Positions 5,948-44,756 of a stretch of DNA of 64,000 nucleotides are shown piece by piece (position 1 is the first letter of the stretch; the number at the start of each line of letters is the position of its first letter). A program made the translations under genes and the position numbers. The stretch is from an uncultured Eubacteriales bacterium (lineage in GTDB: Bacteria > Acidobacteriota > Aminicenantia > Aminicenantales > Aminicenantaceae): the NCBI GenBank assembly GCA_964445575.1, contig CAYULB010000003.1:12343-76342 (forward strand). Reading direction: 5' to 3'. The notes beneath the pieces are model-generated. The model was not told where the DNA came from. It was given only the letters and a program-made list of their open reading frames with translations, and searched no databases.

Positions 5948-6013
5948 GAAATTATTTATCTTTAATCTGAGGCATTCATCAGGAATGTCCAAGATTATAA
6001 AGGAGAAGACAGA

Positions 6014-6691
6014 ATGAACAAAATAAGGCCACTCACTTTATTTTTGTTTGTGGTTGGTTTTCTTTTTACTCTCCACATCGGACTGGTTAATTCTCAAGAG
6101 CTGCCCAAAGCTCAGCTCCCAGTACTCACTACCTCAGCGGGTCAGAGCCCTGATGTAACGACTTTGAATATTGTCTGCGAAGAAGCAGGAATTATGTATG
6201 ATTACGGCGATGTACCTGATGTGAGTATGATAAACGCTGGAGTAGGTCTTGGAGGAAAAGAATCTAAACCTGGTTTTCATGTAGAAATAAACACGGACCT
6301 GGAAAAATTTCCTGAAGGAACGAGTTATAAAACCATCATATTTGCCATCGGAGCCAGTTTGAAAGGAATGGGTGCTTCAGGGCTTACTGTAGAAGATGAA
6401 GTCAAAAGACTGAAAAATATCATTGACTACTGTAAAGAAAATAATATCCTTATCATTGGAATCCATGTAGGAGGAGTCTCCAAAAGAGGGGCTCCTGGGA
6501 GTGACAATGAAAGGATGATCAATGCAGTAGCTCCCTATTCAGACCTTCTTATCGTGACAAAAGAAAGTAATAAAGACGGACGCTTTACTGAGATTTCAGA
6601 AAACCATCAAATACCTTTAAAAGAAATTGACTATGCTCTAAACCTGGTACCTCTGTTGAAAGAAATTTTCAATAATGAGAGTTTTACTTAA
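6014..6691 (+). CDS. Secreted hypothetical protein (signal peptide)
   Basis: N-terminal signal peptide MNKIRPLTLFLFVVGFLFTLHIGLVNSQE. No recognisable catalytic motif. Confidence 0.4.
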   Translation: MNKIRPLTLFLFVVGFLFTLHIGLVNSQELPKAQLPVLTTSAGQSPDVTTLNIVCEEAGIMYDYGDVPDVSMINAGVGLGGKESKPGFHVEINTDLEKFPEGTSYKTIIFAIGASLKGMGASGLTVEDEVKRLKNIIDYCKENNILIIGIHVGGVSKRGAPGSDNERMINAVAPYSDLLIVTKESNKDGRFTEISENHQIPLKEIDYALNLVPLLKEIFNNESFT

Positions 6692-6739
6692 AATAGTTCA
6701 TGTCAAACTGAAAAACCTGTTTTCTATGAATGATTTAAG

Positions 6740-30103: not shown

Positions 30104-30808
30104 TCATATTCCATAAGGAATGTCCTGTTCCAAACGGATTTTAAGTAAAAAGATGGTGTCTTTTTTTAGATTGTTCTTTGCCCAAACTTTCTGTTTTTCA
30201 TCCAAAAGTTCGCCCATACCGGAAAGAATATTTTGTTCGCTAAGGGAACCAACGAATTCAATACATTTTGCAAGATAGTTAGCAAAATTCAACTTTGTTC
30301 TTTTCTCCACAATTTCTTTATTGATCGGCCAGTGATTTTTCAAAAAATACCAGACATCGTAGACATCCCGATGAGCTGTCCTGGAACGTTCCAGCATGGC
30401 TACCAGCTTATGTGCGAATATATCCTCTTTAATCATTACCACCATGGATATACCAAGATAATTTTGGACCTCATACCGGGAGCCAAAACTCCTTCGGTTC
30501 ATTTCGATTTTAATATTGGGCGCTTTTTTTTCATAGGAAACAATGAAGAATAAAGTGTTATACTTTTGATACTTTTCCTTAATGGTCCCGTATTCTTGAA
30601 GAATTTTTTCCAATCTCTCGAAAACAATAGCGTTTTCTTCTTTTTTTAAAAGATCAAAATCAAGATCTACTGAAAAACGGCCGAGATTGTAAAATAAATG
30701 AGCAGCTGTTCCTCCTTTAAGTCCTAAAAAAGGGCCAAGGGAGGTATCTGTGTATATATCTTTTAGAATCTGAAGCAGTATTGATTTATGAATATTTCGA
30801 TCAAGCAT
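30104..30808 (-). CDS. AbiEii/AbiGii-family nucleotidyltransferase toxin (type IV TA)
   Basis: N-terminal LGPFLGLKGGTAAHLFYNLGRFSVDLDFD nucleotidyltransferase motif typical of DUF1814/AbiEii. Confidence 0.7.
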   Translation of the reverse strand: MLDRNIHKSILLQILKDIYTDTSLGPFLGLKGGTAAHLFYNLGRFSVDLDFDLLKKEENAIVFERLEKILQEYGTIKEKYQKYNTLFFIVSYEKKAPNIKIEMNRRSFGSRYEVQNYLGISMVVMIKEDIFAHKLVAMLERSRTAHRDVYDVWYFLKNHWPINKEIVEKRTKLNFANYLAKCIEFVGSLSEQNILSGMGELLDEKQKVWAKNNLKKDTIFLLKIRLEQDIPYGI

Positions 30809-30810
30809 TT

Positions 30811-31389
30811 TTAAGCCATTTCACAATATGACATCAATCTTTTTTCCATTGCCTTGTTTTTATAGATAGAAATCATTTCAAAACATCTATCCCAATCTAT
30901 TGAAGACAGGTTGTCAAAATAATAATTCCTACTTAAATAGACAGTGTCTAAAAAGGCTCTTTCTCGGGATGCTGTGAAATAATTGTTTTTTCTCTCCAAT
31001 CCAAGAGAATTTGTTAAAATCGCATCTTTTATTTTTCGAAAAACATATCTTTGGCCGTCACAAGTAATCTCTCGCGTTAGGTAACTCACCACAAATATTT
31101 GGTCATAGTGCTGGAAAACAATACCTTCTCTAGATAAAACAGTTTCAAGGCTGATATAGGAAGGAGTGTATATTTTATTGGCCAGTTCCAGACGGTCATA
31201 ATTTCTATCCTTAGCATAAATGCCTTTTCGGATAGAATAGAGCTCTTTGTTTTTTACATAGTAGTTGATGCGTCTTTTGAGAAGAGCAACATTGGTTTCT
31301 CCGGATGACAAGAGAATATCTTTAAATGTAAAGACTGTATTCCCTTTACGGAGAATGCTTAAAATACTGGCTTTTTCCATCGTTATCAA
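30811..31389 (-). CDS. AbiEi-family antitoxin/transcriptional regulator (type IV TA)
   Basis: Typical AbiEi N-terminus (ILSILRKGNTVFTFKDIL...LKRRINYYVKNKELYSIRKGIY). Immediately upstream of AbiEii with a 2-nt gap. Confidence 0.7.
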   Translation of the reverse strand: MITMEKASILSILRKGNTVFTFKDILLSSGETNVALLKRRINYYVKNKELYSIRKGIYAKDRNYDRLELANKIYTPSYISLETVLSREGIVFQHYDQIFVVSYLTREITCDGQRYVFRKIKDAILTNSLGLERKNNYFTASRERAFLDTVYLSRNYYFDNLSSIDWDRCFEMISIYKNKAMEKRLMSYCEMA

Positions 31390-31429
31390 CTAAAGGTAAC
31401 ATGTAGCGTTACTTATAGTTTAAATATAT

Positions 31430-31681
31430 CTAAATATATGTCAAGATAGCCGGCCTGAAAGACATATCCTGAGAGGCTGACTTTTCCTTTGCGGACATTG
31501 TACCAATAGTATGCAGGTGGTTCTGTTTCTGAAAATAGAACTTGGGGATAGGTTTTCCCAATAAAGATACTTCTCCCTCGTAGCCATATTCCCGATTTAT
31601 TGAGGCACTCATTTTTGCGAAGAGTCTTGTGATGAACCTAAAATAATCTTGCGTTTCGCAGAAAATAATTACATAATACAA
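31430..31681 (-). CDS. Hypothetical ORF at island left junction
   Basis: 83-aa ORF, no motif recognised. May be a remnant of a disrupted gene. Confidence 0.2.
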   Translation of the reverse strand: MYYVIIFCETQDYFRFITRLFAKMSASINREYGYEGEVSLLGKPIPKFYFQKQNHLHTIGTMSAKEKSASQDMSFRPAILTYI

Positions 31682-31776
31682 ACGTCGCCATTTTTATGAA
31701 TTAATCATATGCATACCCCACCAAGAACAATGAAAATGACATGTTTTTGCCATTTTTAAAGTAATGAGGAGGAAAT

Positions 31777-33456
31777 ATGAAAAAGATATTCTTGCCTAAT
31801 AAAAGCATTTTGTCACTTGAGCAGTTTAGTCGTGTTATTGTCCTACTCGCATGCGCTATGCTGCTCTTTTTTCAGGTGGTCTGCAGAAGGCAATCTCCTC
31901 CAGATCAAAAGGAGGTCGAAGCTCAGCCAGGAGTTTCTACTCATGCCTTAGTCGGCGGCGGAGAAACCGGCGATCTGTTCCATTCTTTTCTCAAACATCA
32001 ACAAGACGGGTCGACATACAACATTCAATCCACAGCCTCCCGACTCTTACAGCAAAATGACCTTGTTCCTTTCCTCAAGCGCTTAATCAATGAAGGCGAT
32101 CGGGAAGCCCGTGCAGATGCTGCTTCGGTTCTAGCATGGGTCTCGGATCCGTCGGTTCTGGCAAGGGTCTCAAAATCCGATGTCCGCTATAAGGTCCTGA
32201 AAAAAGAGTTCCCGGATCGTTTGGCCGGCCTATCTGACGATCCTTACTGGCGTGTCCGCGCCAATGCGGCATTCGCCCTAGGCAAACTCGGATCCGGAGA
32301 CGGCGCCCCGGCTAGAACCCTGGAGAATTTGACCGAAGACAAAGATCCCCGTGTTCGCGCAGCGGCGACTTTTGCCCTTGTTGAAGCAGGGGTAAAAGGT
32401 GCTGTCCCCAGGATAGAGGCCCGCCTGGCTGACATGATACCTGACGTCCGGATTGTCGCCGCAAACGCACTGGGCGTTCTGAAAAGCACGGACGCCGTAC
32501 AATTGCTTCTCCAGGCTATGCATGATCAGCATCCTTTGGTTAGATCTGTAACCTACAGGGCACTCCAAAACATGGGCCCGGCCGCCGCGGAAGCGGTTCC
32601 AAACCTTATCGACGCCGCCTCCCGCGATTACCGTAATGAACGAGTCGCCCTCGAGGCACTCGTGAAGATCATCGGAGAAATGAAGCAGCCTCTCTCTGAT
32701 CCTGAATGGATACACGCCCTGGGTGAACGGGCCGGTGCGCTTGCCGGGCATCTTAGAGATACCCGCCGAGGCCTGCTCAGCCGCGGCCTGTCGGAATCCC
32801 TGGTAAGGATCGCGGGTTGGCTGGGACCGGAGGATCGCAAGCGTTTTATCGATGACCTCGAGCTTCTCGATACCCGAAAAGACCAGAATTTCCGAAACCT
32901 CCATTTCGTCCTGGCGGGGATGTCTCAGCCAGGTCCCTTGCGCCAACGACTTCTAAGCAAGCAGAATGAGCAGGAGCTTCTGGAGAAGCTGGACCATGAG
33001 GATTCAACGGTCCGCCGTGCGGCTGCCATCGCCCTGGCGGAAGGCCGTCCTGACACGGTAATTCCCGCATTGCTCAAGGCTCTTTCCTGTCCCGATCCCC
33101 TAGCAGGGCTGGCCGCGGCACAGTCTCTTGCTTCTTTTGGGAAGCGGTCTGTAGACGGATTGTTGATGCAATTGGACAACCCGGACACATTGGTGCGGAT
33201 CCTGGCATGTTATGGCTTGGCACGGACTTGGGCCGATGAACGGCGCCCCATGGCTGACCAGAAAGGAATAGAGACATTGAGAGTCCTAGCCGGCGATTTT
33301 GAGCAACCATTCGAGTTGCGCCAGCTCGCCTGGTGCGCATTGAACAGCATTTTGCGCGAACCCAGTCAGCTCTGTGACCCAGAAATCTTTCTTGCCAGCC
33401 TTCTGGACCGAATGGCCCTGCCGGATGAGGAACCAGCTCTCAATGACCATCAGTGA
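31777..33456 (+). CDS. Exported/membrane-anchored HEAT-repeat (PBS-lyase type) protein
   Basis: N-terminal hydrophobic segment. Many D.D..VR..AA.ALG repeats (DPYWRVRANAAFALGKLG; DPRVRAAATFALVEAG; DSTVRRAAAIALAEG). Confidence 0.7.
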   Translation: MKKIFLPNKSILSLEQFSRVIVLLACAMLLFFQVVCRRQSPPDQKEVEAQPGVSTHALVGGGETGDLFHSFLKHQQDGSTYNIQSTASRLLQQNDLVPFLKRLINEGDREARADAASVLAWVSDPSVLARVSKSDVRYKVLKKEFPDRLAGLSDDPYWRVRANAAFALGKLGSGDGAPARTLENLTEDKDPRVRAAATFALVEAGVKGAVPRIEARLADMIPDVRIVAANALGVLKSTDAVQLLLQAMHDQHPLVRSVTYRALQNMGPAAAEAVPNLIDAASRDYRNERVALEALVKIIGEMKQPLSDPEWIHALGERAGALAGHLRDTRRGLLSRGLSESLVRIAGWLGPEDRKRFIDDLELLDTRKDQNFRNLHFVLAGMSQPGPLRQRLLSKQNEQELLEKLDHEDSTVRRAAAIALAEGRPDTVIPALLKALSCPDPLAGLAAAQSLASFGKRSVDGLLMQLDNPDTLVRILACYGLARTWADERRPMADQKGIETLRVLAGDFEQPFELRQLAWCALNSILREPSQLCDPEIFLASLLDRMALPDEEPALNDHQ

Positions 33457-33468
33457 GGAGATCTAGCT

Positions 33469-34596
33469 ATGAAAAATTATCAAAGAAACAGGAAATCGAT
33501 TTTAAATCCAAAGGCCTGCCGTTATACGGCTTTGTTATTCGCGGGCGTTATGTTACTTGTGTCCATCGGTCACATCAGCGCCGAGAAGCTCCTTTTCCTG
33601 ACCTCCCTAGGTGGAGCCCGCGTCGCCGTGGACCATCAGATGAGGGTCTTTCCACCGCCGCCCGAGGAGGAACTGCTACTCATCATTGTGTATCCGCATC
33701 CAGACCAAGCCTTTTCCTTCGACGCTGGCAGCCCCGGGGAGCTTCGTATCGAGAGAGCCGTAGCCTTGGTCTTACCTGAAGAGTATGCCATAGAGTATGC
33801 CGACGAGATCGAGTGGTCAATCGATGACATAGGTGGGACACAGGCCGAAATCACGCCCGATCGCGGACCTGTCGTTGACATGGTCTTTCGAGGTCTTCCA
33901 GATCAAAACGATGACTTCGGAGAGAAGCGAATCACCGCGGCCGTCAGGGGCGTTTCTGACAGCGTCACCGTCCGGGCTTTCTTCGATCCACAGGCACAAA
34001 ACCATCCTGGAGGCGATAGTGAGCCGAACTGGTTTTATTATTGGAAGCAGATTGACAGCATTATTGGTGATCGTGATCGAAGCAGGTTAAGATACGAAGC
34101 TGGATTACAAGGTGAGGGAGGAGCACTGGTCACAGGCCAGTATAGATTTCCGCCTGATATCGTCATTCTTTCCGATGCCATTCTCAGTGCGAGCTGTGCT
34201 CAACGTATGATACCGACACGCCCTGGGCCGGGGCCGCACACATATGTTCCCACAGGCGTAAATGCGACAGGCATAGATTGTTTTGCAGAATCTGTTTGGC
34301 ACGAATGGCAGCATCGAGAGGACATGTTTAATTGGTGGGGATCCAGACTCAACTATGCGGTGAAACGAAACCTTTGGGAAGATTATGAAGACAAAGACAA
34401 CGATGATGTTCCACGCCACTATGAAGAGGCTGTGGGTTGGAGTGACAATTTCCCCCGTTGTAGCCCGAGTAGACCCTATCCCATTGTGAAGGATAATGAA
34501 TCTTATTCTTACTGGACAGGCTGGTTGTGGCAAATTAGTGCAGCCGATCACCAGGACTGGTCGCGGGACGGGAAACAGTGGCCAAGTGGCCAGTAA
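33469..34596 (+). CDS. Membrane-anchored hypothetical protein with HExxH (HEWQH) zincin-like motif
   Basis: N-terminal TM (YTALLFAGVMLLVSIGHI). SVWHEWQHRED motif followed by acidic stretch. 375 aa. Confidence 0.5.
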   Translation: MKNYQRNRKSILNPKACRYTALLFAGVMLLVSIGHISAEKLLFLTSLGGARVAVDHQMRVFPPPPEEELLLIIVYPHPDQAFSFDAGSPGELRIERAVALVLPEEYAIEYADEIEWSIDDIGGTQAEITPDRGPVVDMVFRGLPDQNDDFGEKRITAAVRGVSDSVTVRAFFDPQAQNHPGGDSEPNWFYYWKQIDSIIGDRDRSRLRYEAGLQGEGGALVTGQYRFPPDIVILSDAILSASCAQRMIPTRPGPGPHTYVPTGVNATGIDCFAESVWHEWQHREDMFNWWGSRLNYAVKRNLWEDYEDKDNDDVPRHYEEAVGWSDNFPRCSPSRPYPIVKDNESYSYWTGWLWQISAADHQDWSRDGKQWPSGQ

Positions 34597-34606
34597 TCGA
34601 AAACAG

Positions 34607-36532
34607 GTGAACCGGAAGAACAGCGGAGAATTGTGGCCGGCTCTTCTTGCCGGTGTTTGCCTTTTCGTCCCCCTGGTTTTTGATCCCCGGGGCCACCTTC
34701 CGTTCTTTCCGCCCAAGGAAGCCGTCCTTCTCTTCGGCGTTTCCCTGGCGGCGGCTGCCGTGGTCATCTGCAGGCTCCGGAGTAATAGCGCTTCAAGGAT
34801 TTTTTCCGCAACCCGGCTGCGACCTGACGTCACCATTCTTCTCCTGATGGCTTTGTTCTGGATCTGGAGCATCGCGGCCCCCTTGATGAAGATGGAGTCG
34901 GCAGCCGTTCACCTTCGGGGCACCATAAGGCTCACCGCGCTGGTCGCACTGGCCTTAGGTGCTGCGGCTGCAGCCGCAGCCGATCCGCGTTGGAGGGAAC
35001 GTTTTGCAACAGTAGCCGCCCTTCCCGCGATCGTCATGGCGTTACATGCCCTGTTTCAGGCAGCGGGATGCGATCCGCTTAACATCTTTGGGTACGAGCT
35101 GTCCGATCTGAAAGGAAGGTGGCGTGTCTTCACCACCACGGGCAATCCCAACTGGACAGCCGGCTATCTGGCAGCTACGTCGCCGCTTCTGGCTTGGGTG
35201 GTCCACCGCGCCATATGGTTCAGGAAACCTTGCTTGGCGTGGATTGCGCAGGCATCCGTCTGGTCAATTCTGACTGCAGCGGTGCTGACAACCGGATCAC
35301 GTCTGGGCCTGGCGGCGCTACTAGCCTCCGCTTTCTTGTGGTGGCAACATTTTAGATTTTCCTCGCTCTTCAGGAGGATAGGGACATTTATTGCCTGTAG
35401 TGCCCTTGCCGTCCTGATCGGGGTTGTGTCGGGATTTATTACTGCAGAACGCTTAACAGACAAGGCTTCAGTGGCGGGTCGCCTGATCTACGCACGAGCG
35501 GCGTGGGTCCTGATGGCAGACGCTCCGGTTACAGGCAGGGGGCTCGACCAATCAGGGCGGCTCCTTCCGAATGGCTTAGGTGAAGTCGTACCCCGACTTG
35601 GGCCGGGATGGACACCATGGATTCCAAAGACCCTTCTCGCTCGTGTGCCGAACGGCCTGCTTGAAACTACCATCGAGTCAGGCATAGTGGGTACGGCGCT
35701 TCTACTGGCCCTCTGGGCAATGGGACTGCACCGTGCGCTCTCCCGCAGCCGTGCCTGGAAAGGAGACCTTGTCCCTCTCGAAGCAGCCCTTGCCGGCGTT
35801 CTTGCCGCAACGGCAGTGTTGGCAATTGGGGACACACCTCTTCATAACCCCAACTTGGCGGTCTCTTTCTGGATGGTGGTGGGACTTTTAGCCGGTGGAG
35901 CTATCCGAGAGCAGATCAAGGCGCCGACCGTCACCGCTGAAGCGAATAGGTCATGGTCAGGGCGGGTTTTATATTTAGTACTAGCCGCAGCGGTACTCAT
36001 AGGCGCCTGGACCGCCGTGCGGCAGGGCTTAGTTACGCTAATCGTCAACCGTCAAGCCTACCAGGCACATGCGGCCTTCATCTATAACCGTGACGCTGAC
36101 GCGGAACGGATTTTTCGCAATATCCTGTCCCTCGATCCCACCCATCACGAATCATCTGTGGTTTTGAGCTGGTACTTGTTAGAGCAGGATCATCCACTGG
36201 AAGCGCTTGACCTGCTCGATCGCACGGAGCATTATGCTGTCTCGGCGGAAGCTTGGCTTGTCCGAGGGATTGCACTCCGTGACGCCGGCCGTCCGAAGGC
36301 CGCAGTTTCTGTGTTGGAGAATGCCGTAGCCGCAATTCCTGACCTTATGCGTGCCCACATCCTGCTCGGTGATATTTACGACGAGTTGGGTGACGCCCAG
36401 AGGGCAATGGAAGCTTACCGTCTTGTTCTGGAGAGCCCTCAAAATTCACCTGAGGCCCTCGCCTGGAAGGTACGCGTGCAGAAAAAGCTTTCCTGGCTCG
36501 ACTCCTGGGAAGAGCTGGATTTCAATTGGTAA
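34607..36532 (+). CDS. Wzy_C/O-antigen-ligase-like polytopic membrane protein with C-terminal TPR repeats
   Basis: About 10 TM helices with large periplasmic loop typical of Wzy_C (WaaL/PglL superfamily). C-terminal TPR-like repeats. Start is uncertain (GTG at 34607; ORF track 34496 overlaps the upstream gene). Confidence 0.65.
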   Translation: MNRKNSGELWPALLAGVCLFVPLVFDPRGHLPFFPPKEAVLLFGVSLAAAAVVICRLRSNSASRIFSATRLRPDVTILLLMALFWIWSIAAPLMKMESAAVHLRGTIRLTALVALALGAAAAAAADPRWRERFATVAALPAIVMALHALFQAAGCDPLNIFGYELSDLKGRWRVFTTTGNPNWTAGYLAATSPLLAWVVHRAIWFRKPCLAWIAQASVWSILTAAVLTTGSRLGLAALLASAFLWWQHFRFSSLFRRIGTFIACSALAVLIGVVSGFITAERLTDKASVAGRLIYARAAWVLMADAPVTGRGLDQSGRLLPNGLGEVVPRLGPGWTPWIPKTLLARVPNGLLETTIESGIVGTALLLALWAMGLHRALSRSRAWKGDLVPLEAALAGVLAATAVLAIGDTPLHNPNLAVSFWMVVGLLAGGAIREQIKAPTVTAEANRSWSGRVLYLVLAAAVLIGAWTAVRQGLVTLIVNRQAYQAHAAFIYNRDADAERIFRNILSLDPTHHESSVVLSWYLLEQDHPLEALDLLDRTEHYAVSAEAWLVRGIALRDAGRPKAAVSVLENAVAAIPDLMRAHILLGDIYDELGDAQRAMEAYRLVLESPQNSPEALAWKVRVQKKLSWLDSWEELDFNW

Positions 36533-37026
36533 TTAGGGGGTAATTAGGGGGTCGCACCGTGCTATTTCAATTGCTTTAAAACAATCATGCGGACCGATAT
36601 GCCTATTTTTCAACAAGGACGATATCTTTTCCTGACCTCTTTGTTATATTCAAATACAAACTTTCGACCCACATCTTTCGACTCATCTTTCCCCAATTTT
36701 CCAGCACTATACAGCTGTCTTGACTTCTTTGCGCAGGTCCGTAAGCCTATTATTAGAAAGTTCTGTGCCTCTGCTGACAGTCTGTTCTATCCACAGCAAG
36801 GGCAATGCCGCTGATCTTATGGGGATCTCTCCTCAAATTGAGCATGATGAGATGGGATTGGTTTCCCTATTTATTTGAGTGCTTGAGTGACGGCATCGTC
36901 GACGGCTCCTGAAAAAGAGATAAAATCGGAAATTCGGCTTAATTTCTTCGATAGGTGGGTTGGTGAATGTTGTTGACTTTGATATCCGGATAAATCATAA
37001 TATGAACAAGATTTGACTGGGGAAAA

Positions 37027-37320
37027 ATGAGAAAGTTAAATGAAATTAAGAGAATCCTTGCTGAAAATAAACAGGAGATCATTAATAAATTTGCAGTAAA
37101 GGAAATGGGAATTTTTGGCTCTACTCTGACTGATGAACAATCAAAAGACAGTGATATTGATATTCTGGTGGAATTTTCCAGACCTGTGGGTTTTATCCAT
37201 TTTATGAGACTGGAGAATTATCTTTCTGATTTACTGAAGATAAAGGTGGATTTAGTTACCAAGGATGCTTTAAAACCCTATATTGGTAAAATAATTCTTG
37301 AGGAAGTGGTTTATGTCTGA
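37027..37320 (+). CDS. MntA-type minimal nucleotidyltransferase antitoxin
   Basis: GIFGSTLTDEQSKDSDIDILVEF nucleotidyltransferase fold motif (GS...D.D). 97 aa. Confidence 0.7.
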   Translation: MRKLNEIKRILAENKQEIINKFAVKEMGIFGSTLTDEQSKDSDIDILVEFSRPVGFIHFMRLENYLSDLLKIKVDLVTKDALKPYIGKIILEEVVYV

Positions 37321-37501
37321 TCAGAGGAAGAGAGAATTCCGCGACTATATCAATGATATTCTTGAAGCCACACATAATATCCATGAATTCACTCAGACTG
37401 AGGTCAGGAAAACCTTTCGTGAACTTTCTGTCAAACACAGGTATAAGAAAACTTCCTCCGTGGTCCTCAATAGAAAGATTTATCTCCTGTGGGAGAGATG
37501 A
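37298..37501 (+). CDS. HepT (DUF86/HEPN)-like toxin, probably truncated
   Basis: Overlaps MNT stop. N-terminus DYINDILEATHNIHEF is DUF86-like. Only 67 aa. R-x5-H-x-Y (RELSVKHRY) present but IGEA-like block absent. Confidence 0.3.
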   Translation: MRKWFMSDQRKREFRDYINDILEATHNIHEFTQTEVRKTFRELSVKHRYKKTSSVVLNRKIYLLWER

Positions 37502-37955
37502 CAATAATAAGAGTATTTCTTTAAAATCAATGATCCCTTTTCCTATCTGGCAGGGAAATGACTCTAATCCTTTAGAGTTTAAAAAAATTCCTCCATCTTT
37601 AATATGGGTTGACACAACCCAAGGAAGGATTCTTCTCACAGCTTGAATGAGTTCTTCGAGCATGGTAAGTAAATTCATGGTATCAAGACATATCCATAGG
37701 AATGTGCTGGGCTCCTCCCCATTCAATGTAAAGTTCTTTATCAGCCGCATAGTCAGCCAGTTCTTTTAAATAAGAATCACCCACTTGTTTATGGTCTTTA
37801 GAAGACAATCCAGAAAACTGAACTCCTTGGGCATGGTTCTCCACAGCCCATGTCAATGTTTCCATGGGAGTCAGCCCTAAAGGAAAAAGTCCATAATTGT
37901 CTATTCCTAATTTAAACTTCTTCTTTCTCTTTTCTTCACTCACTTTACTCACCAA
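37459..37955 (-). pseudogene. Xylose-isomerase-like TIM-barrel (sugar phosphate isomerase/epimerase) gene remnant, frameshifted and truncated
   Basis: Two overlapping ORFs: KLGIDNYGL...AVENHAQGVQF (N-terminus) and LWICLDTMNLL...VVSTHIKDG...GIIDFKEIL...SIEDHGG (C-terminal part). Middle missing. The 3' end runs antisense into the MNT/HepT genes. Confidence 0.55.
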
Positions 37956-38074
37956 TCATTGAATTATCCTTTTTTTTTATCTATAATAATTTATTATTAT
38001 AAAAATAAAAACATATTGGGGAAAAGCAAAGCAATCATTTAAAGACAAAACATCACATTTTATTCTGTGAGAAA

Positions 38075-39094
38075 ATGTTTGACAATTTCGTTAACCTTGC
38101 TCCGGATGCGGTTATCATGACTGATTTAAGAGGAATCATCATCAATGCCTCCCAGCAAGCACTTGAGCTCTTTGGCTATACACACAGAAATGAACTCATA
38201 GGAAAAAGCTTTTTTGATATGGTAGCCCCAGAATCCAAAGCAAAATCCATCATATACATGAATCAAACTTTAAAAAGGGGTGTTACAAAAAAACTGGAGT
38301 ACGCACTTCTCAAAAAAAACGGAAACCCCTTTACTGGAGAAATAAGCATCTCTGCTGTTGAAAGAAAAGACAATCAAAAAGTATTTGTGGCCATTATCAG
38401 GGATGTCACTGAACATAGGTCGGCTCAAAACCAGCTTAAAGAATCCATTAAAGAGAAAGAATATCTTCTTCAGGAAATCCACCACAGAGTGAAGAATAAC
38501 CTTCAAATCATATCCAGCATACTTGATATGAGCAGTATGAGGATCAACCATCCTCAGTCACAAAATCTTATCAAAGATGCCCAGTCAAAGATACAGACCA
38601 TGGCATTTATTCACTCTCAGCTTTATCGAAGTGAAAAATTTGATCAAATTAAAATGCATGACCATATTAAAGAATTAGTCAAATATCTCCAGGCTGTTTA
38701 TGCCAATAAAAAACAAATAACCTATCATTTAAATATTTCAGATGTGGACCTTCCTTTAACCCAAGCCATTCCCTGCGCTTTGGCTCTAAATGAGCTGATT
38801 TCCAATTCTTTTAAACACGCTTTTAACCAAAAAAAACAAGGAACCATTGAGGTGAGCATGAAAATTTCTGCAGGAACTGTTTTTTTAACCGTAAGAGATG
38901 ACGGAGTAGGAGTCAGTGATGAAATCAATATATACAAAACTCAAAGCCTGGGTATGAAATTGGTCCGCAATCTGGTCCAAAAACAGCTTAAAGGCAAATT
39001 TGAAATGATCAGGAAAAAATATACTGAATTTTATATTGAATTTCCTTCTTATTCACAGGAGGTCAGTTATGACAAATATCATGGTAGTGGATGA
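38075..39094 (+). CDS. PAS-domain sensor histidine kinase (HisKA_2-type)
   Basis: PAS region. EIHHRVKNNLQIISSIL H-box (HisKA_2). HATPase motifs (NELISNSFKHAF; DDGVG). Confidence 0.75.
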   Translation: MFDNFVNLAPDAVIMTDLRGIIINASQQALELFGYTHRNELIGKSFFDMVAPESKAKSIIYMNQTLKRGVTKKLEYALLKKNGNPFTGEISISAVERKDNQKVFVAIIRDVTEHRSAQNQLKESIKEKEYLLQEIHHRVKNNLQIISSILDMSSMRINHPQSQNLIKDAQSKIQTMAFIHSQLYRSEKFDQIKMHDHIKELVKYLQAVYANKKQITYHLNISDVDLPLTQAIPCALALNELISNSFKHAFNQKKQGTIEVSMKISAGTVFLTVRDDGVGVSDEINIYKTQSLGMKLVRNLVQKQLKGKFEMIRKKYTEFYIEFPSYSQEVSYDKYHGSG

Positions 39095-40448
39095 TGAAGC
39101 AACCATAACCACTCAGTTAGAAGAGCGTTTAACTTCTATGGGTTATAAAGTTGTCTCTACCGCTTCATCAGGAAAAGAAGCCATAAAAAAAGCAAGGGAA
39201 ACAAACCCTGACCTCATTCTCATGGATATTGTGATGCCTGGAAAGATAGACGGAATCAAAGCAGCAAAATCCATAAAAAAAGAATTCGACATTCCGGTTG
39301 TCTTTCTCACCGCTTATGGAGATGACCAATTTATACAAAGAGCTAAAACTGTTGAGCCGCTGGGATACATCATCAAACCCTACAATGTCAACGAATTAAA
39401 AGCAGCTATTGAAATCGCTGTATTCAATAAAAAAATATTCAATCAGATGAAAACCTCACAAAAACAATGGCGTACTCTTGCGGAAAACATCCATGAAGGA
39501 ATTATCCTGGCAGATCAAAAAAAGAGAATATTTTTCTGGAACAAAGGAGCTGAAAATATCTTTGGATACTCTCAAAAAGAGGTTCAAGGAAAACAGTTAG
39601 ATTTAATATTGTCAGAAGGAACCAAGAAAATATACCAATACATCATAAATCAGCTTATTTCATCCAGGAATCAGGAAATTTATGACCAGTGGGTCGAATT
39701 AGTGGGAGTCAAAAAAGACTGGAGCCGGTTTCCCATGGAAATCCTTTTAAAAGTCAAAGAATTAGAAAACAATACCTATTTTATTTGTATGGTCCGGGAT
39801 TTAACCAAACAGAAAAAAATAGAATCGCAAATGGAAACAAGAATAAAAGAAAAGGAAATCATCATTAAAGATTATCAGGACCGGATAAAGAACAACTTAT
39901 CCCTTATTTACAGACTCCTCAGTATGCAGCTTGACCTCATTAAATCAAAACATCTTATTTCTAAGGAAAAACACTACTGGCAGGACTTTGATACCTTTTT
40001 TTCCCCTGAAACTCAGGACAAGAAAAGTTCTACAGTAAATGTCTCCAAGTACATATCCAGCATCATAACCAGGCTTTTTAAATCTTATGAAGTTGATAGA
40101 AGCCAAATCACTCTCCATGTCAACATCGAAAAAATTTATTTGAATGTCAGAACTGCTGTACTGTGTGGACTGCTGGTGAGTGAACTGGTTTCCAATTCCA
40201 TAAAACACGCTTTTCCAGAAAAAAAAAGAGGAAATATCATTGTTTATCTCAGCAGTGAAGACCAAAGTAAATACACCTTAAAAGTGAAGGATAACGGGAT
40301 TGGTTTCCCAGACAATATAGATTTCAAAGAGCCAAAATCAAGAGGTCTTGAAATAGTTCATGATATCGCTTCCCAGCTCAAAGGAAAGATGCAGATTGAA
40401 CAAAAAGGAGGAACAGAAATTTCAGTAACCTTTATTTTAGAAGAGTAG
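39069..40448 (+). CDS. Hybrid REC-PAS-histidine kinase (HisKA_2-type)
   Basis: N-terminal receiver (MVVDDEA...LILMDIVMPGKIDG), PAS, RIKNNLSLIYRLL H-box, HATPase. GGAGG RBS supports start at MTNIM (39069), overlapping the upstream kinase by 26 nt. Confidence 0.75.
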   Translation: MTNIMVVDDEATITTQLEERLTSMGYKVVSTASSGKEAIKKARETNPDLILMDIVMPGKIDGIKAAKSIKKEFDIPVVFLTAYGDDQFIQRAKTVEPLGYIIKPYNVNELKAAIEIAVFNKKIFNQMKTSQKQWRTLAENIHEGIILADQKKRIFFWNKGAENIFGYSQKEVQGKQLDLILSEGTKKIYQYIINQLISSRNQEIYDQWVELVGVKKDWSRFPMEILLKVKELENNTYFICMVRDLTKQKKIESQMETRIKEKEIIIKDYQDRIKNNLSLIYRLLSMQLDLIKSKHLISKEKHYWQDFDTFFSPETQDKKSSTVNVSKYISSIITRLFKSYEVDRSQITLHVNIEKIYLNVRTAVLCGLLVSELVSNSIKHAFPEKKRGNIIVYLSSEDQSKYTLKVKDNGIGFPDNIDFKEPKSRGLEIVHDIASQLKGKMQIEQKGGTEISVTFILEE

Positions 40449-40788
40449 AGTCTTCTTTTAACTTTTCTTTCAGAATGCTTTCCAATCTCTCTTCAATGAG
40501 CATCTCTATCATTTCACTCAGAGCAATCTGAGCGGGAGAAACTTCAGCTTTTTCTGAAACAAAAAATTCAGATATATCGCATTCCAGTCCCCGGGCTATC
40601 TTATTCAATATTTCCCAGGTCGGATTCTTATACTTTCCTTTTTCAATATTACAGAGACTGGAAGCAGGAATTCCTGCTTTTTCTGCCAGTTCTTTCTGCA
40701 TCATAGGTTTATTCTCTTTTATGCTGCTTTTCTTGGATATTCTTATGCTGCGAATTTTTTTTCCTAAGTCTTTGAGTGTGAAAGCCAC
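40432..40788 (-). CDS. XRE-family HTH transcriptional regulator
   Basis: QKELAEKAGIPASSLCNIEKGK helix-turn-helix. 118 aa. Confidence 0.6.
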   Translation of the reverse strand: MAFTLKDLGKKIRSIRISKKSSIKENKPMMQKELAEKAGIPASSLCNIEKGKYKNPTWEILNKIARGLECDISEFFVSEKAEVSPAQIALSEMIEMLIEERLESILKEKLKEDSTLLK

Positions 40789-40929
40789 CTTATACCTTCT
40801 TTAAAAAAAATGAATTCAAGACAAATTAATACCACAAATAATTTTTTATTTCAAACTCATTTTTTTTAATCCTATTTTGAGATTTTTTTCAAAAGGATTT
40901 AAAAGAAAAAGAATAATTTATATAATTAC

Positions 40930-40958
40930 TTGACATTTAAATTAAATACTTATATTTT
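40930..40958 (+). promoter_or_regulatory. Candidate sigma-70 promoter (TTGACA-N17-TATTTT) for the ferredoxin/flavoprotein operon
   Basis: TTGACA at 40930-40935, 17-nt spacer, TATTTT at 40953-40958 (alternatively TATATT at 40951-40956). About 75 nt upstream of the 41034 ATG in an AT-rich region. Confidence 0.3.
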
Positions 40959-41033
40959 ATATGGGAGATTAATTATTTAAATGGGGAGTAATTTATCTTT
41001 CTAAAAATAAAACAAAACTAAAAAGGAGGGAGT

Positions 41034-41420
41034 ATGACTAAACTCACTATCGAAGAATTAAACAAACTGCGTAAAAAAGAGAAAGAAAAATCCCTTGTGA
41101 GCAAGGACGGTCCTTTTAATGTCAAAGTGACCGTCCATATGGGAACCTGCGGCATAGCAGCCGGAGCCAGGGACATTATGAAAGCATTCTTGGATGAAAT
41201 TGAAAAAACAAATGCTGAAAATATCTATATGACCACTTCCGGATGCGCCGGACTGTGCAGTCACGAACCCATGGCCACAATAGAATTTGCTGGAAAAATC
41301 CCTGTTAAATACATTGACCTGACTCCTGAAAAAGCAAAAAAGATCTTTAAGGACCATATTCTCGATCAAAAACCTGTTCAGGAGTATGCCCTGGGTGAAG
41401 GAAGCGAAAGGTCTATTTAG
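41034..41420 (+). CDS. Thioredoxin-like [2Fe-2S] ferredoxin (HndB/NuoE-like small subunit)
   Basis: VHMGTCGIAAGA...TSGCAGLCSHEP cysteine pattern of Trx-like 2Fe-2S ferredoxins. 128 aa. Confidence 0.65.
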   Translation: MTKLTIEELNKLRKKEKEKSLVSKDGPFNVKVTVHMGTCGIAAGARDIMKAFLDEIEKTNAENIYMTTSGCAGLCSHEPMATIEFAGKIPVKYIDLTPEKAKKIFKDHILDQKPVQEYALGEGSERSI

Positions 41421-41431
41421 AGGAGGAGAAA

Positions 41432-44400
41432 ATGAAGAACAAACATTATCGAATGAATTTGATAGTTTGCGGAGGCTCCGCATGTGTTTCTAATAATTCT
41501 TTCGGGATCAAAAAGGCTCTGGAAACTGAACTCAAGAAAAAGGGATTGGATAAAGAAATCACAGTGTCCACTTCTGGATGCAATGGTTTCTGTGATACCG
41601 GTCCCCTTCTCATAGTGAAGCCTGACAATATTTATTACAATCACTTAAAAATCAAAGACATCCCTTATCTGGTGGAAGAGCATTTCTTAAAAGGACGTCC
41701 TGTGAAAAAAATGATGTTCATCCCTCCGGCAGAAGAAAGCATTATGCCCAAAATGAGCGAATTGGATTTTTTTAAAAAGCAGATCCTAATTGTATTGCGG
41801 AACAGAGGCCTTATTGATGCAGAAAAAATAAACGATTATATAGCTAAGGACGGGTACATGGCTTTGACAAAAGCACTGACTCAAATGACTCCCGACGAAG
41901 TCATAAACGAGATAAAAAAGTCAGGATTAAGGGGAAGAGGAGGAGCTGGTTTTCCGACAGGATTGAAATGGGAGCTGGTCAAAAAAGCAGAGGGAGACAA
42001 AAAGTATCTCATTTGTAACGGCGATGAAGGAGACCCCGGGGCTTATATGGACCGAAGCATTATTGAATCAGATCCTCATTCAGTGATTGAAGGAATGCTT
42101 ATTGGGGCCAGAGCCATTGGCGCTGACCAAGGAATTGTTTATATCCGCAATGAATATCCTATTGCTCTTAAAAGAATGAGCACAGCTATCGAACAAGCTC
42201 GGGAATATGGTCTTTTAGGAAAAGATATATTGGGAACTGGTTTTGATTTTGATTTGAAAATCATACGGGGAGCCGGTGCTTTTGTCTGCGGCGAAGAAAC
42301 CTCTCTGATAGCCTCTATTGAAGGACGCTTAAGCGAACCCAGACCCAGACCGCCATTTCCAGCCCAGAGCGGACTCTATGGAAAGCCTACCAACATCAAC
42401 AATGTTGAGACCTGGGCTAATGTTCCTGTCATCATAAACCGGGGAGCGGACTGGTACTCATCCATTGGAACAGAATCCAGCAAGGGAACAAAAGTATTTT
42501 CAGTTGTGGGTAAAGTTAAAAATACCGGGCTGGTAGAAGTGCCCATGGGGACCACTTTAGGAGAAATCATATTTGATATCTGCGGAGGAATTGCTGATGA
42601 CAAAAAGTTTAAAGCCGTTCAAATCGGAGGCCCTTCAGGAGGATGTATCCCGGCTGAACTTCTCAATCTGCCGGTTGACTATGAAAGCCTGACCGATGCC
42701 GGGGCCATGATAGGATCGGGAGGAATGGTGGTCACTGATGAAAGCACCTGTATGGTCGACCTGGCTCATTTTTTTCTTGCTTTTATAAAAGATGAATCCT
42801 GCGGAAAATGTACCCCCTGCCGAGAAGGGATCCCCAAAATGCTGGAATATTTAAAAAGCATTAAGGAAGGCACTGCAGATATGAAAGTCCTTGATGACCT
42901 AGAAGCCCTCGCCTGGACCATAAAAGATTCATCTCTATGCGGACTTGGAAAAACAGCTCCCAATCCATTTCTCACCACTTACCGCTACTTTAAAAACGAG
43001 TACATTGATCATATTAAATACAAAAGATGTCCGGCAGGAGTATGCTTTCATCTTGTCTCAGCCCCCTGTCACCACACCTGTCCTATAGGAACAGAAGCAA
43101 GCTCCTATATTGCTCTCATGGCACAGGAAAAATTTGATGAAGCTCTTGAGGTCAACTATTGGGTCAATCCCTTACCCAGCGTATGTTCCAGGGTGTGTCA
43201 CCATCCCTGTGAGTCAAAGTGTAAAGCCGGTCTTTTTGACAAACCCATTGCCATAAGATCCTTAAAAAGGTTTATAACCGACTATGCAGCAAACAACGGC
43301 AAAAAACATAAAGTCAGCCCTTTAAAAAAGCAGCATGAAAAAGTAGCCATTGTGGGTTCAGGACCAGCAGGCCTGATGGCGGCATGGGAACTGGGGAAGA
43401 AAGGATATGATGTTACCATTTTTGAATCTGAATCCATCCCAGGCGGCATGCTTGCATGGGGAATTCCTGAGTACCGCCTTCCTAAGAAAGTTCTTTCTGC
43501 AGAAATAGATGCTATCCTTGATTTAGGAATAAATCTTAAAACCAACACTAAAGTCGGCAAGGACATCTCTATAAATGAGCTGTTCAATCAAGGATATAAA
43601 TCAGTCTTTATCGCTGCCGGAGCTCCTCAAAACATCAAACTGGGTATCCCCGGAGAAGATTCAGAAGGAGTCATAGACCCCATAAAATTTCTAAAGGAAT
43701 ATAATTTAAAGGACCAATCAAAAATCGGAAAGAAAGCAGTGGTAGTGGGCGGAGGAAACACAGCCCTGGATACAGCAAGAACAGCTCTCCGGCTGGGCTC
43801 AGAAGTGACTATTCTCTACCGAAGAAACAGAAATGAAATGCCTGCAAACATAGAAGAAATCGAAGAAACACTAGAAGAAGGAATAAAAATTCAATTTTTG
43901 ACCATTCCCATCAAAGCTCATTCCCAAAACGGCCGCCTCCATAAAATCACTTGTCAGAAGATGGAGCTCGGAAAATTCGACAAATCCGGAAGAAGAAAAC
44001 CTGAACCTCTAAAAGGAAGCGAATTTGACATCCCTGCTGACACCCTCATTCCCGCCATCGGCCAGAAGCCTGACTTGGCATTTTTAGAAGGAAACTCAGG
44101 ACTAAAGGTGACCTCCTGGAACACTCTGGAAGTCAACCCTGAAACCATGGAGACCAACAAACCTGGTGTGTTTGCCGGAGGAGATGTGGTCTCAGGTCCT
44201 GCCACAGTTCTGGAAGCCATGAAAGCAGGCCAAAAAGCAGCAGAATCTATCCACAGATATTTAAGAGGCCATTCTTTAACCCACGATTATCTTCCTACCA
44301 CATCGAAACTAGAAGTCCCTGCTGTTGAAGTCAGTGCTGAAGAGAGGGACTACGACCAAACCCGTCCCTTCTCCCCTAAACTGCCTCCTGAAGAACGCAT

Positions 44401-44509
44401 AAGGAATTTTAACGAAGTGGAACACAGCATGAGTAAAGACGCGGCGGTTAAAGAAGCCCAGAGATGTCTGAGATGTGACCTGGAAAGCCTAAGAATAAAA
44501 GGAGAGTAA
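41432..44509 (+). CDS. Fused NuoE-like [2Fe-2S] + NuoF-like (NADH/FMN/4Fe-4S) + 2x[4Fe-4S] + GltD-like FAD/NAD(P) oxidoreductase (1025 aa)
   Basis: CGGSAC...TSGCNGFCDTGP. GRGGAGFPTGLKWE (NuoF FMN/NADH). ESCGKCTPCREG. Rossmann VAIVGSGPAGLMAAWELGKKGYDVTIFE and VVVGGGNTALDTAR (GltD-like). Confidence 0.8.
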   Translation: MKNKHYRMNLIVCGGSACVSNNSFGIKKALETELKKKGLDKEITVSTSGCNGFCDTGPLLIVKPDNIYYNHLKIKDIPYLVEEHFLKGRPVKKMMFIPPAEESIMPKMSELDFFKKQILIVLRNRGLIDAEKINDYIAKDGYMALTKALTQMTPDEVINEIKKSGLRGRGGAGFPTGLKWELVKKAEGDKKYLICNGDEGDPGAYMDRSIIESDPHSVIEGMLIGARAIGADQGIVYIRNEYPIALKRMSTAIEQAREYGLLGKDILGTGFDFDLKIIRGAGAFVCGEETSLIASIEGRLSEPRPRPPFPAQSGLYGKPTNINNVETWANVPVIINRGADWYSSIGTESSKGTKVFSVVGKVKNTGLVEVPMGTTLGEIIFDICGGIADDKKFKAVQIGGPSGGCIPAELLNLPVDYESLTDAGAMIGSGGMVVTDESTCMVDLAHFFLAFIKDESCGKCTPCREGIPKMLEYLKSIKEGTADMKVLDDLEALAWTIKDSSLCGLGKTAPNPFLTTYRYFKNEYIDHIKYKRCPAGVCFHLVSAPCHHTCPIGTEASSYIALMAQEKFDEALEVNYWVNPLPSVCSRVCHHPCESKCKAGLFDKPIAIRSLKRFITDYAANNGKKHKVSPLKKQHEKVAIVGSGPAGLMAAWELGKKGYDVTIFESESIPGGMLAWGIPEYRLPKKVLSAEIDAILDLGINLKTNTKVGKDISINELFNQGYKSVFIAAGAPQNIKLGIPGEDSEGVIDPIKFLKEYNLKDQSKIGKKAVVVGGGNTALDTARTALRLGSEVTILYRRNRNEMPANIEEIEETLEEGIKIQFLTIPIKAHSQNGRLHKITCQKMELGKFDKSGRRKPEPLKGSEFDIPADTLIPAIGQKPDLAFLEGNSGLKVTSWNTLEVNPETMETNKPGVFAGGDVVSGPATVLEAMKAGQKAAESIHRYLRGHSLTHDYLPTTSKLEVPAVEVSAEERDYDQTRPFSPKLPPEERIRNFNEVEHSMSKDAAVKEAQRCLRCDLESLRIKGE

Positions 44510-44510
44510 A

Positions 44511-44756
44511 ATGCCTGGGAAAAAACTTTATATCGGTAATTTATACTGTCTTGCAGATAAAGAAAACCTTAGAAAACTTTTTTCCAAATATGGAAAAATT
44601 GTGAGCATAGATATGATTCAGGGAACCGGCTACGGTTATGTAGAGATGTCAAATGCTGCAGAAGCTACGGCGGCTATGAAAGGATTAGATGGCAAAGAAT
44701 TTCTTGAGCGAGTTATTAAAGTTAAATACGCTGACCATCCAATTTACCTTCAGTAG
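44511..44756 (+). CDS. RRM-domain RNA-binding protein
   Basis: RNP-2 LYIGNL and RNP-1-like GYGYVEM. 81 aa. Start 1 nt after the flavoprotein stop. Confidence 0.7.
   Translation: MPGKKLYIGNLYCLADKENLRKLFSKYGKIVSIDMIQGTGYGYVEMSNAAEATAAMKGLDGKEFLERVIKVKYADHPIYLQ

Follow-up and report, generated by a model that had tools for sequence, protein, structure and literature searches.

The 64,000-nucleotide stretch analysed here (the window) is part of contig CAYULB010000003.1 in assembly GCA_964445575.1 of an uncultured Eubacteriales bacterium, which GTDB places in the Aminicenantaceae. It carries a GC-rich island that coincides with a single operon of three genes, encoding a HEAT-repeat protein (gene 1), a secreted protein with an HExxH motif (gene 2) and a polytopic membrane protein with a Wzy_C domain (gene 3). 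This operon was likely, with a probability of about 0.8, acquired horizontally from a GC-rich bacterial lineage and then fixed in a chromosome of ~40% GC. The feature is a real but fairly ordinary GC-anomalous island of a well-known kind, and its genes are poorly characterised.

As a clean, well-bounded transfer of one operon with no visible mobility machinery, the locus offers a calibration case for island detection and for quality checks on metagenome-assembled genomes (MAGs), in whose contigs sharp GC steps need not mean chimeras. The cargo is of greater interest: a conserved but rare three-gene envelope module, whose middle gene belongs to an unannotated family with an invariant HExxH motif.

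Composition and extent of the island

The edges of the island were set by a three-segment likelihood fit, which gains 223 log-likelihood units over a single segment. The left edge falls at 31,840 (2-lnL support interval 31,811-32,097) and the right edge at 36,562 (36,509-36,569). GC content is 55.9% in the fitted segment and 55.8% across 31,851-36,550, compared with a mean of 40.3% (standard deviation (sd) 2.0, maximum 43.8%) in all 4.7-kb windows that lie outside the island. On the kilobase scale, GC stays between 33 and 46% throughout the window except at 32-37 kb, where it reaches 54-58%, and 49.5% in the one kilobase spanning the right edge. The tetranucleotide distance between the island and the rest of the window has a z score of 24.4 relative to host windows.

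Both edges are steep. On the left, GC rises overall from 30-38% to at least 50% between about 31.80 and 31.90 kb; at 100-bp resolution, 30-33% at 31.70-31.85 kb is followed by 50% at 31.85-31.95 kb. On the right, the drop is from 53% (36.45-36.55 kb) to 39% (36.55-36.65 kb). An earlier note on this DNA, made from its letters alone, had described a sharp jump in GC; the step is real, but the plateau lies at about 56% and not at about 60%. The sliding-window GC and tetranucleotide analyses that it had proposed as a check gave the profiles and z score reported above.

The anomaly extends to codon usage. Third-position GC is 0.56, 0.52 and 0.60 in genes 1, 2 and 3, respectively, while host genes average 0.38 (sd 0.043), giving z scores of 3.3-5.2. 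Shadow open reading frames (ORFs) of at least 70 amino acids occur at 3.14 per kb inside the island and at 1.25 per kb outside it. They are therefore 2.5 times denser in the island but, contrary to the earlier note, not restricted to it. The island contains exactly one three-gene operon on the + strand (Table 1) and has the properties by which genomic islands are recognised, namely GC, third-position GC and oligonucleotide usage unlike the host, with sharp edges.

Table 1. Features of the island and its surroundings, and the assemblies that cover its junctions (window coordinates)
Feature	Position	Strand	Basis
AbiEi (30,811-31,389) and AbiEii (30,104-30,808), intact type IV toxin-antitoxin/abortive-infection pair	30,104-31,389	-	PADLOC E=4.6e-58 and 1.9e-76; Pfam AbiEii
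AT-rich, host-like divergent intergenic region between abiEi (-) and the operon (+)	31,390-31,776		Sequence, consensus scan
GC-rich compositional island	31,840-36,562		Maximum-likelihood change points, window GC, tetranucleotide z=24.4
Gene 1, HEAT-repeat protein, 559 amino acids	31,777-33,456	+	Pfam HEAT_2 E=6e-38; hydropathy
Gene 2, secreted immunoglobulin (Ig)-like/HExxH protein, 375 amino acids	33,469-34,596	+	Signal peptide, AlphaFold2 model, family alignment
Gene 3, polytopic membrane protein with Wzy_C and C-terminal TPR, 648 amino acids	34,586-36,532	+	Pfam, hydropathy, gene call in L001
12-nt tandem duplication GGTAATTAGGGG/GTAATTAGGGGG, exactly on the 3' edge of the island and including the gene 3 stop	36,528-36,551	+	Read from sequence
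MNT antitoxin (37,027-37,320, 32% GC) and ORF of 62-67 amino acids in the HepT position	37,027-37,501	+	NTP_transf_2 E=2.7e-16; PADLOC PDC-S09
Decayed xylose-isomerase-like TIM-barrel gene	37,256-37,955	-	ORFs of 90 and 164 amino acids in different frames; weak AP_endonuc_2 match, E=0.0013
SRR7048228, stretch L001 of a 30,080-bp contig	23,469-44,596		99.98% identity; both junctions
SRR7048219, L003	30,421-34,980		100% identity; left junction
SRR7048219, L094	34,954-37,792		100% identity; right junction
SRR7048218, L002, starting ~430 bp left of the operon	31,343-44,596		100% identity; both junctions
SRR15699983 (different accession series), L093	36,260-42,801		99.97% identity; right junction

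In several respects the locus resembles other compositionally anomalous islands. An abrupt break in GC, codon and oligonucleotide usage is confined to an accessory gene block, orthologues are at home in other lineages, and the codon positions hint that GC has shifted more towards the host at the third than at the first and second. Unlike the usual islands, the operon in the window comes without an integrase, a tRNA target, direct repeats or any other hallmark of mobility. It is also only 4.7 kb long, is bounded by the first and last codons of one operon, and consists of GC-rich DNA within an AT-rich host, a direction that is discussed less often.

Related operons and probable direction of transfer

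Close relatives of the operon are rare. A word-indexed search of 5.8 billion proteins returned just 2-4 close homologues of genes 2 and 3, and a handful of specific orthologues of gene 1 amid many generic HEAT matches. Context look-ups and a metagenome scan found the order HEAT/gene 2/Wzy_C again at loci L006, L007, L089, L090, L091, L095 and L096, and partially at L175. At L096 (SDBT01024264.1), an extra ORF of 319 amino acids (5965-6924) separates the gene 2 homologue from the Wzy_C gene, and the HEAT protein has 803 amino acids; module composition therefore varies.

Orthologue contigs with more than about 0.5 kb of flanking sequence have flanks of 61-67% GC, and their operons lie within 2-6 points of them: 71.6% against 67% in L089, 63.3% against 61% in L096, 71.6% against 66% in L095 and 70.3% against 65% in L175. 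The operon in the window, at 55.5%, stands 16-20 points above its flanks of 40% and 36%. The same genes are thus found compositionally at home in contigs of 61-73% GC, in unrelated lineages that match them better than the present host does. Outside the window, this particular three-gene clade has been seen solely in GC-rich DNA with matching flanks, which indicates a GC-rich source and supplies the chief evidence on the direction of transfer. The earlier note had held that relatives carrying the same genes at matching composition would speak against acquisition. Such copies were found, but in distant GC-rich organisms and not in relatives of the host, which supports transfer.

A family-wide comparison points the same way. 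Across 70 loci with the gene 2 domain, on contigs of 32-71% GC, the difference between domain GC and contig GC averages -0.007 (sd 0.036, maximum +0.073). The window copy lies at +0.117 (z = 3.5). The family therefore normally tracks the composition of its genome, and the window copy is an exception.

The copy at L006 allows a closer comparison, with amino-acid identities of 70, 57 and 70% for genes 1, 2 and 3. Nucleotide homology to L006 (75-76% identity) covers 31,861-36,508, starting at codon 29 of gene 1 and ending 8 codons short of the gene 3 stop, and is limited to the operon. The flanks are unrelated, and the region upstream of the window operon has no nucleotide homology to the L006 upstream region. 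Ratios of non-synonymous to synonymous substitution rates (dN/dS) against L006 are 0.24, 0.29 and 0.24 for genes 1, 2 and 3, so the genes are maintained by purifying selection. With dS at 0.8-1.2, the two copies are not recent siblings.

The earlier note was right that genes 1 and 2 begin with some 25 AT-rich codons: GC is 35% in the HEAT gene (56% in the remainder) and 36% in the HExxH gene (53%). In gene 1 these first 25 codons have only 28% amino-acid identity to L006. Since the two gene 1 products are of equal length (559 amino acids), with their (L/F)LAC and Q..C motifs in register, rapid in-place divergence of a weakly constrained signal-peptide region appears the favoured explanation; replacement by host DNA is less favoured. 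The AT-rich start of gene 2 is common to L006 (44% GC, MKN.QRNRKSILN...) and missing in the GC-rich orthologues, and is therefore a property of the sub-clade and not an effect of the junction. As AT-rich N-terminal extensions of both genes occur in the window and in L006, and not in the GC-rich orthologues, they suggest that the ancestor of these two cassettes may already have resided in an AT-rich genome.

Whether the operon has drifted towards its host is less clear-cut. In the amelioration framework for transferred DNA, reportedly set out by Lawrence and Ochman in J Mol Evol in 1997, drift shows as a disequilibrium of codon positions, with GC shifted further towards the host at the third position than at the first and second. 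Pooled codon-position GC of 0.637, 0.460 and 0.569 implies genome GC of 60, 71.5 and 52.7% under generic Lawrence-Ochman regressions, which is the classical form of this disequilibrium. Synonymous third positions at which the window and L006 differ are skewed: in 226 cases A/T in the window stands opposite G/C in L006, and in 96 cases the opposite holds. However, HEAT, TPR and membrane proteins have intrinsically GC-rich first and second positions in every orthologue. In a regression specific to the gene 2 family, the first and second positions of the window copy lie +2.0 and +1.35 sd above the expectation given third-position GC, and genes 1 and 3 show no first- or second-position lag relative to L089. 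The generic codon-position test was downgraded because this family-specific control and the L089 comparison weaken the signal. Against drift, then, it has to be said that the amelioration signal is weak after control for protein family (~2 sd, in gene 2), and that a later, fairly recent arrival from a donor of ~55-60% GC is possible. Partial amelioration from a donor above 60% GC is plausible, on suggestive evidence.

Junctions, integration and competing explanations

The inserted unit would be essentially the operon alone, placed in a variable stretch that also collected the AbiE pair, a remnant of an MNT/HepT pair and the decayed TIM-barrel gene. Integration was probably independent of a recombinase, because no mobility genes, no significant terminal repeats and no viral, plasmid or phage copies were found. 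Illegitimate recombination is one conceivable route; another is homologous recombination with a larger fragment, donated by a relative in which the operon was already present. The operon would now be read from an AT-rich, host-like intergenic region, divergently from abiE, and its genes, kept under purifying selection, have probably drifted part of the way towards host composition.

Neither a tRNA nor an Rfam match is present in the window, and no integrase, recombinase, transposase, relaxase or phage domain was found in the candidate genes picked from ORFs of at least 100 amino acids. This agrees with the earlier note, which had seen no integrase, transposase or tRNA, and the locus does not have the make-up of a classical integrase-mediated island, integrative and conjugative element (ICE) or prophage. 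No significant terminal or flanking repeats were detected at the island edges. One candidate for a flanking direct repeat or target-site duplication was rejected: the match between GTAATGAGGAGG, just before the gene 1 ATG, and GTAATTAGGGGG, at the right edge, is no better than 92% of shuffles, so that the likeness of the 36,528-36,551 duplication to GTAATGAGGAGG is at chance level. No copies of the operon or of gene 2 were found in viral contigs, plasmids or phage records.

An abrupt change in composition without mobility genes also has the look of an assembly chimera, in which DNA of a GC-rich organism was misjoined into an AT-rich contig, and the available assemblies are all short-read metagenome assemblies. 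The junctions were therefore followed in per-run Logan assemblies, independent of one another, and in the NCBI contig of 105,397 bp that holds the window. In four runs from two accession series (SRR7048228, SRR7048219, SRR7048218 and SRR15699983; Table 1), they were found again at 99.8-100% identity. There is no junction repeat able to seed a misjoin, the ORFs are intact, and a host-like ribosome-binding site directly precedes gene 1. A chimera is very unlikely, given that both junctions recur in independent assemblies and that no junction repeat is present. The argument that unbroken genes at the junctions speak against a chimera has thus gained support, and the recurrent junctions, together with the finding of the same operon at home in GC-rich contigs, bear out the earlier suggestion of horizontally acquired DNA.

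Some contigs break near the left junction. L005 ends at 31,372, L177 ends at 31,357 and L002 starts at 31,343, all inside the start of abiEi (window 31,328-31,372), and contigs from two different samples stop there at most 15 nt apart. Of 4272 positions, L177 and the window differ at 7. These ends probably reflect branching of the assembly graph at strain-level single-nucleotide polymorphisms, though a structural variant may be involved.

The operon and the neighbouring toxin-antitoxin (TA) modules could instead have arrived together on a larger mobile element (ICE, plasmid or prophage) whose integrase and ends were later deleted. In favour of this, mobile elements often carry TA modules, the HepT stub and the TIM-barrel pseudogene show gene decay at the locus, and no recombinase is left to explain the insertion. 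However, the TA genes are 32-35% GC and the operon genes 52-58%, with sharp steps between them, and therefore have no single compositional history. The operons at L089 and L096 also lack TA or mobility neighbours, and the empty searches of viral contigs, plasmids and phage records again count against such an element. A relic of this kind is consequently rated as unlikely. Far less credible still is that the genes are native, their high GC stemming from amino-acid composition or selection in Ala/Arg/Gly/Leu-rich repeat and membrane proteins. First- and second-position GC is indeed high in every HEAT, TPR and membrane orthologue, and the HEAT gene of L089 exceeds the generic expectation by ~0.10. 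The third position, where protein constraint is largely absent, nevertheless has a GC 3.3-5.2 sd above that of host genes, and the tetranucleotide signature has a z score of 24. Elsewhere, the gene 2 family tracks contig GC from 32% to 71%, so there is no intrinsic need for high GC.

A repeat-bounded cassette of the integron or another type, moved by site-specific recombination, was considered because of L006. That locus is a contig of 5,210 bp (SRR16248218) with a 27-nt repeat, ATTATCAA[C/T]AACTT[C/G]CAGCAGCCAAAG, at either end; the copies lie at 35-61, 5012-5038 and 5097-5123, and on the 3' side the repeat makes up a palindrome with a ~60-nt loop. The repeat may be a repetitive extragenic palindromic (REP)-like or miniature inverted-repeat transposable element (MITE)-like sequence, or a cassette boundary. 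TA cassettes are typical of chromosomal integron arrays. In the window, by contrast, no copy of the L006 repeat was found (0 matches when up to 3 mismatches were allowed and none at up to 5), and all other fetched loci lack it too. No palindromic element was seen at either island edge or at 36.5-37.0 kb, and no IntI-like or other recombinase gene among the window candidates. The GTT...AAC order of the L006 palindrome is opposite to that of attC, and abiE (-) and the operon (+) lie on opposite strands. With neither an attC site nor IntI, the integron idea was rejected, and a cassette mechanism is given hardly any weight.

Several points weigh against acquisition of the operon from a GC-rich lineage. 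The insertion is deduced from composition and distribution rather than observed, and every assembly is short-read. No empty site was recovered: exact look-ups with AbiEii, MNT, hemerythrin and the PAS kinase gave only island-bearing or truncated contigs. The synteny comparison with related genomes that the earlier note had suggested did not help. A scan of a genome collection with the flanking Fe-S gene found 80 loci, the best of them in MAGs labelled Candidatus Aminicenantes or 'uncultured Eubacteriales' (70-73% amino-acid identity), and none of these best loci has any neighbouring gene in common with the window. In addition, the L006 flanks (229 and 214 bp; 52% and 40% GC) are too short to judge whether that copy is itself an island.

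Predicted envelope products and the surrounding locus

Features of all three products suggest that they are directed to the cell envelope. The gene 1 product contains a single N-terminal hydrophobic segment as well as an LLAC motif resembling a lipobox. The gene 2 product has a signal peptide (one N-terminal hydrophobic segment), an Ig-like beta-sandwich at about residues 70-172, and a C-terminal domain with an invariant HExxH (H278, E279, H282) and DxDxD. Gene 3 starts with GTG, overlaps the gene 2 stop by 11 nt, and encodes about 11-12 hydrophobic segments, with TPR families in the C-terminal part. Its Wzy_C domain (PF04932, residues 258-404 of a 678-amino-acid ORF) places it with polytopic membrane proteins of the Wzy_C class.

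Searches of Pfam, NCBIfam, PADLOC and PDB sequences gave no match to the gene 2 protein. Nevertheless, among 1.84 billion cluster representatives, 954 match its profile at E<=1e-3 and 98 do so at E<=1e-30, so this is a sizeable, real protein family without a Pfam or NCBIfam model. The domain often forms the C-terminal part of proteins of 550-750 amino acids with N-terminal ankyrin repeats. In an alignment of 41 members (27-56% identity), H278, E279, H282, D310, D312, E319, N187, W188, Y191, D363 and W364 are invariant, which adds the DxDxD, NW..Y and DW motifs to HExxH. Weak TSP3-like matches were seen at DxDxD in two family members. An AlphaFold2 model built with the 41 sequences has a pLDDT (predicted local distance difference test) score of 86.7, and Ig-domain matches dominate when it is compared with the PDB library using Foldseek. 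The family-wide conservation of HExxH is as expected of zincins. As in gluzincin-type metallopeptidases, the motif is predicted to lie on a long helix, with an invariant Glu (E319) 37 residues downstream on another predicted helix. Unlike known zincins, the protein lacks Pfam, NCBIfam and PDB sequence matches, has the additional invariant DxDxD, NW..Y and DW motifs, and carries an N-terminal Ig-like domain, and many relatives are fused to ankyrin repeats.

Gene 3 resembles the Wzy_C superfamily, which includes WaaL O-antigen ligases, Wzy polymerases and PglL/PilO O-oligosaccharyltransferases, in its Wzy_C match above the gathering score and its ~12 hydrophobic segments. It differs in its C-terminal TPR domain, in its fixed HEAT and Ig-like/HExxH partners, and in the lack of polysaccharide-biosynthesis genes near the operon; no sugar or polysaccharide-biosynthesis genes were found beside it in the window, L089 or L096. 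Read most economically, gene 3 could encode a ligase, polymerase or O-oligosaccharyltransferase of the Wzy_C type that works on undecaprenyl-linked glycans, with its TPR tail binding a partner or substrate. Gene 1 would supply a membrane-anchored HEAT-repeat scaffold and gene 2 a secreted, putative zinc hydrolase with an Ig-like domain, and the three products might jointly modify a surface glycan or glycoprotein. This specific activity is put forward tentatively, as a possibility with the odds against it. Several observations count against it: the assignment is made at the level of domains, the Wzy_C match is barely above the Pfam threshold (36.2 bits against a cut-off of 31.7), a sequence comparison of gene 3 with solved WaaL/PglL structures gave TPR matches only, and the HExxH domain found no fold match with Foldseek in the PDB library.

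A bolder and more doubtful proposal is that the HEAT-lipoprotein/Ig-HExxH/Wzy_C-TPR combination is an undescribed, self-contained and horizontally mobile module for cell-surface remodelling. A ligase or polymerase would be guided by repeat-protein partners, a secreted zinc enzyme would process the product, and the module would be kept by the AT-rich host, in a defence-type hotspot, for altering a surface structure such as a phage receptor. In that case, secreted zinc enzymes would gain a new family, defined by the gene 2 domain. No literature on this domain combination, or on the run or project accessions, was found. If the module does modify the surface, the present locus and its GC-rich orthologues would form a natural comparative set.

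The operon lies within a variable interval at 30.1-38.0 kb that has the look of a plasticity hotspot and is flanked by conserved host genes, a hemerythrin gene (29.5-30.0 kb) and a PAS kinase gene (from 38.1 kb). Elsewhere the window consists of ordinary chromosomal DNA, whose genes include those for RpoD, PFK, LigA, a MutY-like protein, Pol X and a tricorn-type protease. To the left of the island, the predicted AbiEi/AbiEii pair was recovered by PADLOC with strong E-values (Table 1); its antitoxin and toxin genes are adjacent, at 34-35% GC, and AbiEi also has a weak match to NCBIfam TAA_AbiEi. To the right, an MNT/HepT pair had been proposed. The MNT gene is intact, but the HepT position holds only a stub of 62-67 amino acids (37,298-37,501, + strand), with no Pfam, PADLOC or NCBIfam match and no DUF86/HepT model at E<=1. 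There is no full-length HepT (DUF86) with its Rx4HxY RNase motif; the stub lacks the C-terminal part and appears to be a truncated or decayed HepT partner. The TIM-barrel remnant overlaps both the 3' end of MNT and this stub, so that a small graveyard of decayed genes lies to the right of the island.

At 32-35% GC, the TA neighbours belong to the low end of what host DNA shows and therefore did not travel with the operon. The idea of TA-bracketed, horizontally acquired DNA thus survives in part: acquisition is supported, while the TA loci mark a variable hotspot rather than one mobile element shared with the operon. With intact AbiE upstream, MNT downstream and decayed genes alongside, the locus resembles defence islands and TA hotspots (AbiE type IV, MNT/HepT type VII). 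In contrast to defence islands, the operon encodes envelope proteins and contains no PADLOC system beyond generic HEAT repeats, its orthologues elsewhere are not beside defence genes, and HepT is truncated here.

The intergenic region between abiEi and the operon contains an AGGAGG ribosome-binding site 6 nt before the gene 1 ATG and a putative sigma-70-like site at 31,615-31,644, found by consensus scan only. An ORF of 83 amino acids without a family match (31,430-31,681, - strand) lies between abiE and the operon. Beyond gene 3, the 474-bp spacer at 36,553-37,026 (36-47% GC) has no recognisable gene, terminator or repeat. Either this ORF or the spacer could be a remnant of the pre-insertion site. 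Further to the right, at 38,075-40,448, two adjacent, overlapping genes encode PAS/HisKA_2/HATPase sensors, the second with a receiver domain. They have a common 53-nt segment with 79% identity (38,791-38,843 and 40,181-40,233), and their sequences suggest a local paralogous pair.

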